From the IMG/VR virus record IMGVR_UViG_3300015371_000001, positions 32,001-96,000 of that record: a stretch of 64,000 nucleotides of DNA; one strand, 5' to 3'. The notes below the pieces were generated by a model that did no database searches, had not been told where the DNA came from, and worked only from the letters and a program-made list of their open reading frames with translations. Shown here piece by piece: positions 12,941 to 27,354 of the stretch (the stretch's first letter is position 1; every line of letters starts with the position of its first letter). The position numbers were made by a program, and so were the translations under genes. This DNA comes from a virus.

Positions 12941-13372
12941 ATGCAGGATTGCTCAACGGCTGGGTGTAACAACCCAGCCGTTGGTCATGGAAAGAACTGG
13001 CGTAAGTGCCGTAGCTGCTTGAACGAGTACCAGCGGAATTGGCAACGTCAGAACAAGGCGCGTCGGACCATCGTCCGGTTTAAGATCACCGAGGGCGAGT
13101 ACGTCGAACAGCTAGAGGATCAGTACGGCAGGTGTGCCAACCCATCCTGCCTCACCCACTGGCGAGACACGGCCTTCAAGCGCCTGGTGTGGGACAACGA
13201 ACGACGGAAATTGCTCTGTGTCCCCTGTAACAAAGCGCGTGGTCTCCTCCAAGATGATCCACTTCGGCTACGTGGGCTGGCCGATTACGTGGAGGGGACT
13301 CAGACTGCCAATCCGATGAGCCTAAGCAAGGTTCTCGGCGAACCGATAAGCATTGATAGACCAGCCGGTTGA
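12941..13372 (+). CDS. Endonuclease VII-like (His-Me finger) protein
   Basis: CRSC...QYGRCANPSC...LLCVPCNKARGLLQDDPLRLRGLADYV. Confidence 0.7.
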   Translation: MQDCSTAGCNNPAVGHGKNWRKCRSCLNEYQRNWQRQNKARRTIVRFKITEGEYVEQLEDQYGRCANPSCLTHWRDTAFKRLVWDNERRKLLCVPCNKARGLLQDDPLRLRGLADYVEGTQTANPMSLSKVLGEPISIDRPAG

Positions 13373-13454: not shown

Positions 13455-14462
13455 GTGCCTGAGATCAGTCTTTTGAACCCGACCGTGCTGCGGGGCGTCG
13501 TTGAGAAGTTCACGGCCCCAGAGTCGCTGGTGATGCTCAACCGCGTCGACAAGACTCCGTGGCCGTACCCGAGCGCCACTTGGGACGTGATCCGTGGTTC
13601 GCGCATGATGGCGAAGCCGAACGTCCCCAACTCCGAGGCCCACATCGTGCCTCGTCTGGGTCGGAGCCAGGAGTCGGCGAGCTTCGTCTACCTTCGTGAG
13701 AAGAAGGTGTTCGAGCCCACCACGCTCTACTGGATTCGTACGCCAGGGCAGCTTGCGGCGCGCAACGCCGAAGCTGCGGTCATGCGAGAGATCGGTGACC
13801 TCAACCAGCGCTTCGACAACTTCGCCGAGTTCTGCATCTGGCGGATGTTCACCGGCAACCTGGTGCTCGACTATCCCGACGTGCAGGCCAACGTCGACTA
13901 CAAGCTCCCGTCGAGCCACAAGCCGAACCCAGGCACCTCGTGGGCATCAGGCACCCCCGAGTCGCTGGTCGGCGACATCCGGGCTTGGAAGCGGCTCATC
14001 AGCCGTGACGGTCGTGTTCCGGCGCGTGAGGCGTACGCCACCGAAAAGACGATCTCCTACATCTTCGACGCCTACGCGGACACCGGCTCCAACGCGCCGT
14101 TCCTGCTGAGCGACCGGATGAAGGACCAGTACTACTCGACCGGCACGCTCCCCAACTTCATGGGGCTCGACTGGCATACCACCGAGCACATCTTCGAGGA
14201 CGACAGCGGCAACGAGACGCTGTTCCTGGCGGACAACGCGCTGCTGATCGGCAACTTCACCGAGAACCGTCCGTTCGAGATGTTCGTCGGCCCGACCGCT
14301 GACGACGAGGCTCCGGACTATTTCACCGGCAAGTTCTCCAAGACGTGGAAGGACAAGGACCCGTCGGCCAGGCAGTACCTCCTGGAGTGGCACTTCCTTC
14401 CGGTTATGACCCGTCCTGAGCAGTTCGTCTACGTCGCGGACGTGACCGACACCACGCCATAA
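13455..14462 (+). CDS. Major capsid protein (lambda gpE-like)
   Basis: 335 aa with strong SD (AAGGAG); follows scaffold and decoration genes; KTWKDKDPSARQYLLEWHFLPV C-terminus; strong hairpin follows. Confidence 0.85.
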   Translation: MPEISLLNPTVLRGVVEKFTAPESLVMLNRVDKTPWPYPSATWDVIRGSRMMAKPNVPNSEAHIVPRLGRSQESASFVYLREKKVFEPTTLYWIRTPGQLAARNAEAAVMREIGDLNQRFDNFAEFCIWRMFTGNLVLDYPDVQANVDYKLPSSHKPNPGTSWASGTPESLVGDIRAWKRLISRDGRVPAREAYATEKTISYIFDAYADTGSNAPFLLSDRMKDQYYSTGTLPNFMGLDWHTTEHIFEDDSGNETLFLADNALLIGNFTENRPFEMFVGPTADDEAPDYFTGKFSKTWKDKDPSARQYLLEWHFLPVMTRPEQFVYVADVTDTTP

Positions 14463-14592: not shown

Positions 14593-14623
14593 GTTGGTGG
14601 TCGGCAACGTGGTCCGGTAGCCT
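14593..14623 (+). promoter_or_regulatory. Promoter TTGGTG-N18-TAGCCT overlapping a GTTG-N8-CAAC box
   Basis: Same layout as the promoter at 16404-16434. Confidence 0.5.
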
Positions 14624-14653: not shown

Positions 14654-15394
14654 ATGGCTACACGCTTGAACCAACTGCTCGCTATCGACAAGACGCAGCA
14701 GGCAGAGACGAAGTCTGTGGTCACCAAGTCGCACCACGCGCTTCAGACAAGCTCCAAGACGGTGGGTATCCACCGGAGCTACCAGCCGCTCGATGAGGCG
14801 GACACCGACCGACTGCCCGATGAGGGCACGCTGGTCCAGGTCCGTGCGGGTGAGGAGATCCAGCGGGTCCGCAAGGCATGGGGCGACCTCATGGACGTGA
14901 CCGCGAAGAAGGACTGGACCAACCAGTCGGCCAACGCGGATGTTGTCCTGTCGGACGGCACGGTCCTGGTCGAGGGTGCGCCCACGACGTTCCTGCTCTG
15001 GCTGGAGAAGCGGCTGGAGGACATCTACACCTACGTGTCCAAGATCCCGGAGTTGAACCCCGGCATCGAGTGGGAGTACGACCCGAACACGGACACGTAC
15101 CGCTCGAAGCCCACCGAGACGGCGCGCAACAAGAAGGAGCCGAGGGTCGTCACCTTGGCTCCGTCGACCGACAAGCACCCGGCGCAGACCCAACTCCTCA
15201 TGGAGGACAAGCGGGTCGGCACGTTCACCACGACGCACTTCAGCGGTGGGATGCCCCGCAAGGACATTCAGGCGCTCAAGGAGCGGGTGCGCGAGGTCGC
15301 CAAGGCGTCCAAGCAGGCACGGGAGCAGGCCAACCTGGTCGATGTGGACGACATCGAGGTTGCCGACCGTGTCCTGGACTACATCTTCGGGTAG
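14654..15394 (+). CDS. Conserved hypothetical protein (MATRLNQLLAI...; from memory resembles the actinobacterial/phage DUF7873-type family)
   Basis: 246 aa, SD GGAGGCAGC; motifs KKDWTNQSANADV, FLLWLEKRL, TDKHPAQ, HFSGGMP, AREQAN. Confidence 0.8.
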   Translation: MATRLNQLLAIDKTQQAETKSVVTKSHHALQTSSKTVGIHRSYQPLDEADTDRLPDEGTLVQVRAGEEIQRVRKAWGDLMDVTAKKDWTNQSANADVVLSDGTVLVEGAPTTFLLWLEKRLEDIYTYVSKIPELNPGIEWEYDPNTDTYRSKPTETARNKKEPRVVTLAPSTDKHPAQTQLLMEDKRVGTFTTTHFSGGMPRKDIQALKERVREVAKASKQAREQANLVDVDDIEVADRVLDYIFG

Positions 15395-15397
15395 GGT

Positions 15398-15870
15398 TGA
15401 CGTAAGCCAAGTTCATCGTCATTGGTCAGTGAGGGTGCAGCCTCTTAAGCGGCCCCACTCAAGTTCATGGATAGCGGGACCCTAGTGCAGGTTCGAGCCC
15501 TGCCCCCGGTACAACGAGCCGGGGTAGCCCAATCGGTAGAGGCAGTCCCCGCCAGTCAAGCTCGGCTTACAAGTTCATAGACCGTGGGAGGCCGGATCGA
15601 TCTGGCACCGACCCACTAAAAGCAAGAGGAGCGGGTTCAATTCCCGTCCCCGGAGCAGGGTCCCCGTCCCGTGAGCAAGAACGGTGGGGGACGGTGGCTC
15701 TGCTCCGGGGTGGCTCAAGTGGCTGAGCGCTTGCTTACGTCATAGTTCTTTCGGTGCCCAACTGTGTCGGTTCTCCAGGATCGCGGATACGACTACAGAC
15801 CTGACTTTTGAATCAGACCTCTGATCGTTGGGGGTGGCCCACAAGGCAAGGTGGGTCACCCCCGCTTTTT
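15398..15870 (+). ncRNA. Structured RNA with two circularly permuted tRNA-like modules
   Basis: T-arms GCAGG-TTCGAGC-CCTGC (15487-15503) and GCGGG-TTCAATT-CCCGT (15631-15647), each followed by a closed acceptor-like stem and a D-arm-like segment; no credible ORF; ends in a terminator. Confidence 0.75.
15830..15870 (+). terminator. Intrinsic terminator
   Basis: GGGGGTGGCCCAC / GTGGGTCACCCCC stem followed by GCTTTTT. Confidence 0.85.
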
Positions 15871-15911
15871 ATGCTTTAGACTGTTGACGACCGGCAACTA
15901 GGAGGCATGGC

Positions 15912-16436
15912 ATGACCGACTTCGTGGACCTCGATGAGGTAGAACCACTTCCACCGCTCTTTCAGGAGCAGATGGAGAAGGCGGAGAATGTTCACTTCAT
16001 GCTCGCCCCGCAGAATCCCAGCGAGGCAGACCTGGAGGCGTACGCCGACGGCCTGGACGCGGCAGCGGACGTGATCGACTCCAAGGGTTGGTGCCAGAAC
16101 ACCTTCATCGGGCAGGACGGTACGGTCTGTGCCGAGCAGGCGATGTGGGTGGGCTACGGCCTGAAGGGTATGTGCGGGCAGGAAGCGAAGCCCACCGATG
16201 GCCTACCGTTGGCTCAATTCAACAAGGCGCTCGCCATGCTCGCGCTGATCGTCAAGGCGCATGGTGCTCGTACCGGTGCGTCGGTGGCTGGCTGGAACGA
16301 TGAGGACGCCACCACGAAGGAGCAGGTGGTCGACACCCTGCGCTTCGTGGCCAAGGAGTTCCGCATGGGCAAGGCGTACTTCGAAATTAATCTGCCGTGG
16401 GGGGTTGACGGTCGGCAACCAGATGCCGTAGAGTAG
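15912..16436 (+). CDS. Hypothetical protein, 'AAD-I--GWxQ...C...WND' paralog family (DUF6197-like from memory)
   Basis: AAADVIDSKGWCQ..C..GWNDEDATTKEQVVDTLR; SD AGGAGG. Confidence 0.75.
   Translation: MTDFVDLDEVEPLPPLFQEQMEKAENVHFMLAPQNPSEADLEAYADGLDAAADVIDSKGWCQNTFIGQDGTVCAEQAMWVGYGLKGMCGQEAKPTDGLPLAQFNKALAMLALIVKAHGARTGASVAGWNDEDATTKEQVVDTLRFVAKEFRMGKAYFEINLPWGVDGRQPDAVE
16404..16434 (+). promoter_or_regulatory. Housekeeping-type promoter TTGACG-N18-TAGAGT with overlapping GTTG-N8-CAAC box
   Basis: Close to the actinobacterial HrdB/SigA consensus; points into a long ORF-free structured region. Confidence 0.65.
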
Positions 16437-16440
16437 TAGT

Positions 16441-16980
16441 CAAGTGAAGGGGCTCCGAAACCGGTATGCCGGGGGAGTCAAGCCACACCTCGCGGGAGCT
16501 ACGGTGTAACGCGAGGCGAGGACTGCGGCGATAATCCGCGCTCGTGACGGATGGCGGTCAGGTCCCTACGGGGACTGCTCCAACTGGAGACCCCTTCGCG
16601 AACACCCCCTGTGGGCGACTGTTGACCGATGCCTAAGGGCGATCCGGCAGTTCACCGGAAACGCCACGAGTACGGCTGATGAACACGGCGGCTACGCGGC
16701 AGGGGGAGCCAGGGAATCTCGTGAACGGGTAGAGCCGCCGAGTAGGGTTCGAGTCCCGTCCCCAGCGTGTCAGGCGCTCGTCAGAACGGCGGTGAAACCC
16801 CGTGCGGAACACGGAGCGCTGTGGAACCGGGAGACCTCGTCAAGATTGCGATGGCGACGAGACAGCCCGAGGTGGGCCTGATCAGCCGCCCTGGTTCCGG
16901 GCACCGGCAACCATCTCCTTTCGGGCAGAACCCCGAGGTGAGTAGGGAGTAGCTACCCGAAAGCCTCGGGGTTCTTGCTG
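16441..16980 (+). ncRNA. Candidate large structured ncRNA (~540 nt)
   Basis: Domain-closing helices 16444-16452/16591-16599, 16605-16611/16700-16706 and 16707-16714/16889-16896; UACG tetraloop hairpin; T-loop GGGTTCGAGTCCC; 12-bp terminal hairpin. Confidence 0.6.
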
Positions 16981-17012
16981 TACGGAACTGCTAGAACTGA
17001 GTAGAAGGCAGC

Positions 17013-17867
17013 ATGGTGGCATCGGTGTTGATGGGTGTCGGAGTCACGCTCTTGGCGCTCGCCTTCGCACTTGGTTTTCGGCTGCTTCGGATGCGAAACG
17101 AGCTACGCGCCGAGATGAAGGCGAAGGGGTTGCTCGACACCGTCTCCGAGGACGAGATCATGAACACCCACGCTGACTTCGAGAGCAAGACGCTCAGCTT
17201 CGATGCGATGCTCCACAGGACGGCGTTCTTGGAGGGCGAGATCCACGGCAAGGTGCAGCAGTTGGAGTTGGCGCAGCACCTCATCGATTGTCCTAACGCC
17301 AGCAAGCTGCGGCGGCACGCGCTCACCAAGAAGTGGATTCCTGAGCTAGAGTCAGCGGCCAAGCTCAAGCCCAAGCATCCGGGCGCGATGACGGTCGATC
17401 CACCTCAAGCGCGAGCGCGATGGGAGCAGGCTGCCTGGAACGTGTTCCATCTGCCACCCCAGGAGTTCAAGGGGTTGAGCACCGACCAGTTGGAGATGAA
17501 GGTTCGAGGCGCTGGTCTCCGGTGCGATGAGTGCCGCGTTTGGCGTGCGCGTAAGGACATCGTCAGCGACCAGTACGAAAACAGCTTCGGTGATGGGGGC
17601 CGTACTACGTTCTGGTATCGCCGCTGTAAGGACGCCTGCGACCTGAAGCACGTGGAGGCGACTCAACGCGCTGTGCTCAAGACGGCATCGACGCCGCCGA
17701 CGGTCGTGCTCGGGCCAGACGAGGCGATTATCACAGAGGACCGTGCTCCGTTGATCGAGTGGTACTGGAAGTCCAAGGCGACCCATGAACGTGTCATGAA
17801 CATGGGCCATACAGCCAAGTGTGGGTGTCGTGGTTGCAAGCAGAAGCGGGCCGAGGGCTACCGATGA
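17013..17867 (+). CDS. Membrane-anchored hypothetical protein with Cys motifs
   Basis: N-terminal TM helix; CDEC, CKDAC, CGCRGC; SD-like GAAGGCAGC-ATG. Confidence 0.7.
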   Translation: MVASVLMGVGVTLLALAFALGFRLLRMRNELRAEMKAKGLLDTVSEDEIMNTHADFESKTLSFDAMLHRTAFLEGEIHGKVQQLELAQHLIDCPNASKLRRHALTKKWIPELESAAKLKPKHPGAMTVDPPQARARWEQAAWNVFHLPPQEFKGLSTDQLEMKVRGAGLRCDECRVWRARKDIVSDQYENSFGDGGRTTFWYRRCKDACDLKHVEATQRAVLKTASTPPTVVLGPDEAIITEDRAPLIEWYWKSKATHERVMNMGHTAKCGCRGCKQKRAEGYR

Positions 17868-20855: not shown

Positions 20856-21776
20856 GTGACGACGTTCGGGATCGACGTATCCCACCATCAACCAGATTTC
20901 AACTTCGACGCAGCCGCCGCCGAGGGCATCAAGTTCTGTTACTGCAAGGTCTCCGAGGGCCGTGAAGTACGCGACGAGCGATGGCCGGAGTACCGGGAGC
21001 ACGCGCTCAGCGCTGGGCTCTATGTGGCTGGATACCACTTTTTGCGCTCCGACTCCCCACCGGAGGATCAGGCGCGTAACGCCATCGGTTGGCTGGGCAA
21101 GCACACTCCTCTGATTCTCGATGTCGAGGAGGACAAGAGCCCCAAGAGTCAGCCGACGCTGAAGCACGTCCAGGAGTTCATCTCAGCGGCCAAGGAATTG
21201 GACGCCGAGGTGTCGATGGTCTACCTCCCGTTCTGGTACTGGAAGTGGATCGACCAGAACCACAAGGACTCCGACCTCAAGCCACTGCCGCCGATTATCT
21301 CCTCGGACTATGGCGTCGACACCGTCGGTCCGTACCGGGAGATCTACCCAGGCGACGACTCCACGCGATGGAAGGCGTACGGCGGCGTGACGCCGACGAT
21401 CCTCCAGTACGGATCTCGCGCTTCGGTGGCTAGCCAGCGAGTCGACGTGAACGCCTTCCGAGGGCCAGCGGCCAAGCTCGCGAAGTGGTTCCGTAGCCCT
21501 CCGGGCGAGTCGACCTTCAGCCTGGACGAAGTGCTAAATCCTCATGCTGACGAAGAAGATCAGGTCACCTTCCGGCAGTGCCTCCTCAGCGCGTACCGGT
21601 TGTCGGATCGCTTCGAGCGATTCGCCGAGGCGCAGCGCCGCCGCGTCGCCGCCGAAGTACGCCGCGACGAGGACAACTTGGAGGCGATCAAGGCTGAGAT
21701 CCACAAGCTCAACGGCGGCAAGAAGCTCACCAAGCAGGACGTGGTCAACGACCTCATCGACCGTCTGAAGGACTGA
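20856..21776 (+). CDS. Endolysin, GH25 muramidase
   Basis: FGIDVSHHQ, KVSEG, GYHF, LILDVEE and LQYGS..VDVNAF motifs; CCGCTAA lies 7 nt upstream of the GTG. Confidence 0.9.
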   Translation: MTTFGIDVSHHQPDFNFDAAAAEGIKFCYCKVSEGREVRDERWPEYREHALSAGLYVAGYHFLRSDSPPEDQARNAIGWLGKHTPLILDVEEDKSPKSQPTLKHVQEFISAAKELDAEVSMVYLPFWYWKWIDQNHKDSDLKPLPPIISSDYGVDTVGPYREIYPGDDSTRWKAYGGVTPTILQYGSRASVASQRVDVNAFRGPAAKLAKWFRSPPGESTFSLDEVLNPHADEEDQVTFRQCLLSAYRLSDRFERFAEAQRRRVAAEVRRDEDNLEAIKAEIHKLNGGKKLTKQDVVNDLIDRLKD

Positions 21777-21879
21777 GCCGAACAGCTAGTGATTCGGTAC
21801 GCGACCGGGTATCAAAGTGTCAGAGAGTGGGTTCGGCCTGCCCGATTCTCCGCTCCGATAATTCCTACGAGGAGGACCA

Positions 21880-22386
21880 ATGCCGAGTAAGCAGACCGCC
21901 CAGGTGGTGGACCCGACCAAGGAGAAGTCGCCCGAGCAGATTGCCCGCGAGATCGAGGCCGACAAGCTCGCCCAGAAGGCTGGTCGCGAGGAGCCCAAGA
22001 CGGAGACCTTGGAGAAGGCCGACGACGGCGAACACACCATCTTGATCCACTTCATCAAGGAGGCCGGTTTCACCGCTTTGGCTCGTGTCTGGTACCGGGC
22101 TCAGGAGATCGAGTTCTCCATCCCCGACGGCGAGAGCTACAAGGACACCTTCGACCGCAAGGGACGGTCCTGGCTGGTCTCCCAGAAGGCGACCAAGAAC
22201 GACAAGGGCGAGTGGGTCTACCCGAGCGAGGTCACCGTCCTGGACGACTACCAGCAGGCCGAGCGCTGGGGCGAGATCGTGTACCGCGAGGGACCGTGGC
22301 GCGGCAAGGGCTGGGACGAGGATCAGGCAGCGCTCAAGGAGCGCGAGCGCAACCGCGCAGCGCCGGTCCTGGACAAGCGGGTGTAG
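21880..22386 (+). CDS. Hypothetical protein, probably virion-associated
   Basis: CCGATAA at 21855 plus GAGGAGG SD; lies before the head-tail adaptor. Confidence 0.7.
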   Translation: MPSKQTAQVVDPTKEKSPEQIAREIEADKLAQKAGREEPKTETLEKADDGEHTILIHFIKEAGFTALARVWYRAQEIEFSIPDGESYKDTFDRKGRSWLVSQKATKNDKGEWVYPSEVTVLDDYQQAERWGEIVYREGPWRGKGWDEDQAALKERERNRAAPVLDKRV

Positions 22387-26919: not shown

Positions 26920-27354
26920 ATGAGCAAGGGCGCGCACAAGCTGGGCAAGGGAGAGGTCGTGGAGAACGGTTCGTGGGGCTCTGGCAGACCTGAGATCCGG
27001 GCGTTGCAGGACCAGGTGGCCGGATGGGCGGCGGACAAGCCGTTCAAGCAGAAGGGGAATCCGGCGATGGCGGGGTGCAAGCTGGCCGAGGAGGTCGGGG
27101 AAGCGCTCGGGTGCCTGGTTCGGATGGAGCAGGGGGTTCAGGCTCCGCCCGACTACTGGCTGGGGCGGCTGGCGCAGGAGCTAGGCGATGTCCAGATCAT
27201 CCTGAGCCGACTGGCTGACGTGGTGGGGCTGGATCTGAGCGTGTGCGCCTGGAATCGGTGGTCCGAGGTCTCACAGCGCGACGTGATGGCTCCGCGTACG
27301 CCGGAGGAGCGGCAGGCGGCGGCGCTGGCCGGGTGGACGGTGGCGGATGAGTGA
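26920..27354 (+). CDS. MazG-like nucleotide pyrophosphohydrolase
   Basis: KLAEEVGE...QELGDV motif; GGAGG SD. Confidence 0.85.
   Translation: MSKGAHKLGKGEVVENGSWGSGRPEIRALQDQVAGWAADKPFKQKGNPAMAGCKLAEEVGEALGCLVRMEQGVQAPPDYWLGRLAQELGDVQIILSRLADVVGLDLSVCAWNRWSEVSQRDVMAPRTPEERQAAALAGWTVADE

Follow-up and report, generated by a model that had tools for sequence, protein, structure and literature searches.

A GC-rich untranslated stretch between a predicted promoter and a terminal hairpin in an accessory island of an uncultured actinophage-like virus

The stretch described here (16437-17012) belongs to an uncultured, actinophage-like virus whose record comprises 141,276 bases and is about 96% complete. 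The window, that is the whole piece of DNA that was analysed, comprises 64,000 nucleotides (bases 32001-96000 of the record), and positions are given in its numbering unless the genome is named. Almost every gene of the phage is on the + strand, and a block of 36 tRNA genes occupies genome positions 5.7-11.6 kb. Among cultured phages, Microbacterium phage Magritte is the closest, its capsid protein being 63% identical. The major capsid protein gene (13455-14462) lies upstream of the stretch, after the genes of the portal, a protease and an HNH/endonuclease VII protein. It is followed by the gene of a DUF7873 protein (14654-15394), a first gap free of ORFs which holds the neighbouring RNA (15395-15911), the gene of a DUF6197 protein (15912-16436), the stretch itself, the gene g284 (17013-17867), several small proteins, two of them with membrane helices, and a GH25 endolysin (20856-21776).

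The upstream flank encodes the DUF6197 protein on the + strand, with 174 aa, GC3 of 0.8-0.88 and a match to Pfam PF19698 (E 1.2e-14). This match runs from position 7 to position 110 of a profile of 111 and shows the gene to be complete. The three strain variants found in the gene (16370, 16376 and 16394) are all at third codon positions. The noncoding gap is absent after other DUF6197 genes, namely the one in a 297-kb phage, where coding sequence directly follows, and two further ones. The downstream flank is g284, an orphan of 284 aa on the + strand with an N-terminal membrane anchor and a Cys-rich C-terminus. Among 5.8 billion proteins g284 found only itself and neither flanking protein had a close relative; the sole other contig with g284 is 1.4 kb long. 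Both flanking proteins being orphans at close range, synteny is unusable for finding relatives of the stretch.

The genes between 14463 and approximately 21880 are missing from all 80 capsid relatives and synteny is back at about 21900, which places the stretch inside a 7.4-kb accessory island between the capsid and the tail genes. The island contains both noncoding units, orphan genes, small membrane proteins and the GH25 endolysin, and is recently acquired. This absence, along with the orphan state of both flanking genes, fits a stretch that is a functionless spacer, either a recombination scar or a fully decayed remnant in a young island, with a promoter that serves the downstream genes. 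Such a spacer is possible but on the whole rather unlikely; 500 useless nucleotides are seldom retained by a phage genome. Near the island, the endonuclease VII/HNH gene (12941-13372) lies between the protease/scaffold genes and the capsid gene and is probably a homing-type insertion, since it is missing at that place in most relatives. Magritte (OR553905) also presents a gap 3' of its capsid gene, 820 nt long (21179-21996), whose sole content is a minus-strand "hypothetical protein" of 84 aa (gene 22). Instead of a gene, this gap may contain a noncoding element; neither of the two RNAs of the window resembles it.

The original prediction described about 575 nt lacking a credible ORF, and this description holds. 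No ORF that begins with a start codon exceeds 61 aa, stops number 4-10 in each of the six frames, and GC by codon position is flat (0.55-0.75). One frame is open for 123 codons without an ATG, GTG or TTG start and without codon bias, its GC3 and GC2 both being approximately 0.65, against GC3 of 0.8-0.95 and GC2 of 0.3-0.5 in the flanking genes. No Pfam or tblastn match was found for the open frames of the stretch, and tblastx against related loci gave no protein signal. Small proteins could be sought in this open frame or in the ORFs of 30-61 aa, for example the 61-aa one at 16767-16952; the missing start codon and the base composition of the former, and the absence of Shine-Dalgarno sequences and of database matches for the latter, make a coding role highly improbable.

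The untranslated body (16441-16926, + strand) is GC-rich (about 0.64) and carries no ORF, codon signal, protein similarity, Rfam match or homologue. Its GC is above that of other intergenic spots of the region (0.54-0.585). A GC of 0.64 without codon periodicity is unlike a freshly decayed gene, a point in favour of a leader transcript. The same observations speak against a spacer, where a lower GC, as in those other spots, or leftover periodicity or protein similarity from a decayed gene could be looked for. High GC kept without coding is likewise consistent with a free-standing ncRNA.

The left boundary of the stretch is a predicted sigma-70-type promoter, TTGACG-N18-TAGAGT (16405-16434, + strand), which matches 9 of 12 consensus positions and has a predicted start near 16441. 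Such promoters were defined by -35 and -10 hexamers at a spacing of 16-18 nt and a transcription start. The TAG stop codon of the DUF6197 gene (16434-36) overlaps the -10 element. The promoter scan identified two sites in 3.6 kb against 0.5 expected, and this promoter is one of them. The -35 is overlapped by a palindromic box of 16 nt, GTTGACGGTCGGCAAC (16404-16419, + strand), possibly also an operator, which has a perfect copy at genome position 5807 beside the tRNA array. Copies with 1-3 mismatches were identified at genome positions 5538, 122009, 124437 and 126774 and at window positions 14593 and 15883. Altogether there are about eight occurrences in the genome, five of them with TANNNT 8-11 nt downstream, and they precede the tRNA array, both noncoding units (including the operon of the neighbouring RNA) and several right-arm genes. 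As a sequence pattern the recurring box is above chance (a perfect 16-mer with the -10 at a fixed distance), and its sites are a candidate regulon with the site of a dimeric regulator. The promoter proposed by the original prediction is thus supported computationally, both at 16405-16434 and by the recurrence of its box. The sister promoters share this geometry. Only 25-30 nt separate their -10 from the start codon, so the 578 nt to the next credible start codon are anomalous here.

The right boundary is a perfect GC-rich hairpin of 12 bp with an interior of 25 nt (16927-16975, + strand; arms 16927-38 and 16964-75), followed by UGCUGU. Its arms are exactly as originally proposed, and its z against dinucleotide shuffles is -4.9, so that it is clearly non-random, which counts against a spacer. 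It is a terminator or attenuator candidate. Intrinsic terminators were defined as a GC-rich stem-loop followed by a U-tract; the tail UUCUUGCUGU is a weak U-tract lying partly inside the stem, and the terminator scan flagged only an inner 5-bp version of the hairpin. The long interior and the weak tract are points against a leader or attenuator.

The end of the hairpin lies 37 nt from the next gene. Most of this distance is a 29-nt leader (16980-17008, + strand) with the Shine-Dalgarno sequence GAAGG, identical at 28 of 29 positions to genome 114633-114661 (82633-82661 in window numbering, outside the window). The leader reads GTACGGAACTGC(T/A)AGAACTGAGTAGAAGG, and its two copies, the only ones in the genome, are each directly before an unrelated start codon. 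As the second copy comes directly after the stop codon of the preceding gene, the leader is taken to serve translation initiation and not to be a promoter; a translation operator and a recombination junction are candidate roles for it. Pairing between the RNA body and this leader gave -41.3 kcal/mol, while shuffles averaged -43.0, which amounts to no pairing.

The arrangement of promoters and terminators around these elements bears on how the downstream genes are transcribed. The strong terminator of the neighbouring RNA (15829-15868) is upstream of the stretch, and two promoter-like sites come after it, one before the DUF6197 gene and the other being the promoter of the stretch. Between 17000 and 22600 only one sigma-70-like site was identified, within a gene and at chance level. 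The promoter of the stretch is the sole consensus-like one directly ahead of the block that runs from the membrane proteins to the endolysin. With a terminator upstream and no further consensus promoter downstream, transcripts from g284 to the endolysin must cross the stretch and the hairpin.

The original prediction presented the body as a large structured RNA, possibly of a new class like GOLLD and ROOL. All the sequence elements it named are in place, including the hairpins at 16562-75 and 16745-57 and the pair CGGCGGCT/AGCCGCCG (16686-93/16733-40). The MFE fold of 16441-16900 does show three consecutive domains closed by the helices proposed earlier; these helices, however, are no more than chance would give. 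Counts of helices with a minimum length of 7, 8 and 9 bp were 65, 18 and 6 for the body, whereas dinucleotide shuffles gave 74, 28 and 10. Long helices being no commoner than in shuffles, the domain-closing pairings are expected by chance, and so are the cross-domain pairings CGGCGGCT/AGCCGCCG and CACGAG/CTCGTG, real as their sequences are.

Folding stability gives the same picture. The full stretch has an MFE z between -0.8 and -1.1, and the core (16441-16900) one between +0.4 and +0.6. In the same genome, used for calibration, z is -2.7 for the neighbouring RNA, -1.6 and -1.8 for two tRNA arrays, and -1.2 on average for ten coding windows; RNAs of this genome range from -1.4 to -2.7. The first domain alone (16441-16603) reaches -2.2, equally on both strands. 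Named helices, domains and cross-domain pairings are what a random GC-rich sequence yields, as would be expected of a spacer, and the ornate three-domain fold is unsupported, though not refuted. Both the core, less stable than the coding controls and the other RNAs of the genome, and the deficit of long helices also speak against a free-standing ncRNA.

Two small hairpins lie within the body. The UACG tetraloop hairpin GTCCC-TACG-GGGAC (16562-16575, + strand) has 6 bp including one G-U pair, and at least two tetraloop hairpins occur in 12% of shuffles. For the T-loop hairpin GGG-UUCGAGU-CCC (16745-16757, + strand) the frequency in shuffles is 1%. Positions 16745-60 (16 nt) repeat, without a mismatch, the T-arm of the tRNA-Ala(UGC) encoded by the phage itself, and a 19-nt comparison with the neighbouring RNA, covering its T-arm and GUCCCC, gives 89% identity. 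Local alignment of the stretch with the neighbouring RNA and the phage tRNAs confined the similarity to this 19-nt T-arm. The features of the stretch above chance are the promoter box, the T-loop hairpin and the terminal hairpin only.

The T-loop hairpin admits several explanations. In a spacer it could be a fragment of a tRNA gene. In a DNA-level element, such as a replication origin, a packaging site or an attachment site with a tRNA 3' fragment, the T-arm and its acceptor-like tail GGGTTCGAGTCCCGTCCCCAGCG would resemble the 3' end of a tRNA gene, as in att sites. This last option is very unlikely: the stretch has no iterons, tandem repeats or AT-rich part, no integrase is adjacent, the 23-mer GGGTTCGAGTCCCGTCCCCAGCG occurs in none of the bacterial genomes of 185,579 species, and the location is within the structural-gene region. 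In a free-standing ncRNA the hairpin, rare in shuffles and shared with tRNA-Ala and the neighbour, would be a positive sign, and the RNA might serve as a decoy or partner for a host or phage factor that recognises T-arms.

Known RNA families were sought in the window with covariance models, membership being defined by a score at or above the gathering threshold of the family. Rfam 15 gave no match at gathering in the whole window, including ROOL, GOLLD, OLE, HEARO, raiA, group I and II introns, riboswitches, T-box and 6S. At E up to 10 the region 16200-17200 matched only IRE_I, mir-7180 and Tombus_3_IV, all at chance level and far under gathering. The strong match to a known family that would have removed novelty was not found, and this absence is compatible with a free-standing ncRNA. 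ARAGORN with default settings identified no tRNA or tmRNA in the stretch. A separate call of the same program, far from the array of 36 tRNA genes, is a solitary "tRNA-Ser" of 96 nt (27116-27211) whose anticodon, ACU, is unusual.

Four specific candidates were rejected. For a tmRNA, defined by a tRNA-like domain and a tag reading frame as detected by ARAGORN or RF00023, ARAGORN at a 70% threshold gave only spurious permuted calls and RF00023 matched only tRNA genes in the whole genome. For type A RNase P RNA, defined by an RF00010 match including the conserved P4 regions, no match was found in the whole genome at E up to 10, while controls were matched in 11 of 14 genomes; a likeness by eye of 16792-16820 and 16926-39 to conserved RNase P regions was dropped on this result. 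For a tRNA or pseudo-tRNA, defined by a cloverleaf with a 7-bp acceptor stem, D-arm, anticodon arm and T-arm, ARAGORN at an 80% threshold made one 93-nt call (16675-16767) with 5 of 7 acceptor pairs and a T stem of 3 bp; only the T-loop hairpin of the stretch is tRNA-like. For a self-splicing intron, defined by gene halves on both flanks and a ribozyme core, the DUF6197 gene is complete upstream, g284 has its own ribosome-binding site downstream, and no intron model matched. The earlier statement that the stretch is not RNase P, tmRNA or a group I or II intron is borne out by Rfam, ARAGORN, RF00010 and RF00023.

The neighbouring RNA, 500 nt upstream, is of a different nature. A gap of 500-1100 nt is found 3' of the DUF7873 gene in all 20 IMG/VR loci with this gene, at GC contents from 29 to 71%, and an iterated nhmmer profile matches all 20 and window 15457-15650 (E 2e-24). 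The RNA family thus follows the DUF7873 (PF25283) gene in 21 of 21 loci, its core in the window being 15457-15730. It carries two circularly permuted tRNA-like modules, each with a T-arm, an acceptor hairpin and a D-arm in this order. Compensatory variation in the modules is strong: 97.5% of cells are paired, and the covariation score of 0.94 falls to 0.10-0.24 once the partners are slid. One module matches Rfam YrlA (RF02553) weakly, under gathering (22.9 bits, E 0.018). The DUF7873 protein, found in no paper by a literature search, looks by these comparisons like one half of an undescribed pair of a protein and a Y-RNA-like RNA. The order DUF7873-RNA-DUF6197 (14654-16436) recurs in the unrelated 297-kb phage (L005, 5001-6675), which suggests a three-part module.

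The stretch was rejected as a member of this DUF7873-linked family. The profile misses it at E 100, and the covariance model R1, built from 17 modules and requiring T-arm, acceptor hairpin and D-arm in order, recovers the two modules of the neighbour (E 5e-16 and 1.6e-8) and only 16745-16757 of the stretch (8.6 bits, E 0.09). The stretch resembles its YrlA-like neighbour in the T-loop hairpin with GUCCCC and in the promoter box; it differs in that YrlA (RF02553) has no match and R1 matches the 13-nt hairpin only, which also weighs against a free-standing ncRNA.

Relatives of the stretch were sought in several collections. A "distant" blastn search against 50,697 INPHARED phage records gave no match, and the whole Magritte record gave only chance matches of 12-23 nt and tRNA T-arms. 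With nhmmer, also under --max, nothing was found in 110-120 loci (1 Mb), 80 of which surround capsid genes 54-77% identical, and BLAST against 55 whole related viral records gave nothing. Exact-word scans with three words of 20-23 nt in IMG/VR, JGI metagenome contigs and the genomes of 185,579 species returned three isolated 20-mers, which, lacking extension, are chance. A homologue is absent from all these collections, even in phages whose capsid protein is 75-77% identical. Near-identical contigs of the phage itself are present in rhizosphere, soil and wastewater sequencing runs, among which no RNA run is listed; they cover only a small part of the stretch and do not vary within it. A literature search found no description of the stretch.

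For a conserved structured RNA, the definition asked for two or more independent members showing compensatory base changes. The collections searched contained no second member, which leaves no class to define and no covariation to observe. With the fold at chance and the closing helices expected, the proposal of a large structured RNA of a possibly new class is not supported, though not refuted either; the search that was to reveal its homologues, with BLASTN and nhmmer in phage and metagenome collections, revealed none. A stretch that is unique in all homology searches is again what a spacer would be. Variant strains cover about 130 nt of the stretch with at most one difference, which would go against a spacer, although these numbers are too few to test constraint.

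The comparison with ROOL (RF03087) and GOLLD (RF01998) follows the same lines. The stretch is like them a noncoding segment of several hundred nt in a tRNA-rich phage genome. It is unlike them in giving no covariance-model match at E up to 10, in lying about 37 kb from the tRNA array, and in that relatives, covariation and excess folding stability are all absent.

A free-standing, trans-acting ncRNA of about 535 nt from an unseen family, co-regulated with the tRNA array and the YrlA-like neighbour, is accordingly weighed on mixed evidence. Its own predicted promoter, a box common to the tRNA array and the operon of the neighbouring RNA, and the significant terminal hairpin are in its favour; the lack of a homologue in the collections searched, and with it of covariation, goes against it, and we regard it as unlikely. 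Still more doubtful is the bolder form in which the stretch would be the first member of a new phage ncRNA of about 535 nt, from a barely sampled lineage, acting with the adjacent YrlA-like RNA. The T-loop hairpin would then be, for instance, a tRNA-elbow mimic or a docking site.

The reading to which we give most weight, and only tentatively, is that the stretch is a long leader or attenuator transcript. The phage-specific promoter (16405-16434) would fire into about 535 nt of untranslated GC-rich RNA ending at the 12-bp hairpin (16927-75), ahead of the ribosome-binding leader of g284. Transcripts may stop at the hairpin, yielding a short non-coding RNA, or read through it, in which case g284, the two small membrane proteins and the GH25 endolysin (20856-21776) would be expressed. 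A regulator might bind at the palindromic box that overlaps the -35. Transcription itself, its fate at the hairpin (termination or read-through) and its regulation are all inferred. A leader of 535 nt would be unusually long for a phage, and late transcripts of the capsid operon could be an alternative supply of the downstream genes.

Two known arrangements resemble this layout. In phage lambda, PR'-6S RNA-tR' is a promoter-proximal terminated transcript of 194 nt ahead of the lysis and late genes. The stretch would share with it a promoter, an untranslated RNA and a hairpin just upstream of the endolysin block, with read-through needed; it differs in its length of about 535 nt instead of 194, in the weak U-tract, and in that no Q-like antiterminator or qut site was identified. 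The likeness is an analogy of layout and not homology. Phage morons are promoter-gene-terminator units inserted in late operons. The stretch is like them an apparently autonomous promoter-to-hairpin unit in an accessory island between capsid and tail genes, and unlike them it has no protein-coding gene.

The few large RNAs of phages would gain a member if the stretch were truly a new large RNA, and nothing here argues for that. The conserved, covarying RNA of the locus is the neighbour at 15395-15911 and not the stretch at 16437-17012. If the leader or attenuator reading is true, the stretch would be an ordinary but unusually long control region of an accessory, lysis-related gene block, and its interest would be mainly for transcription control in such phages.
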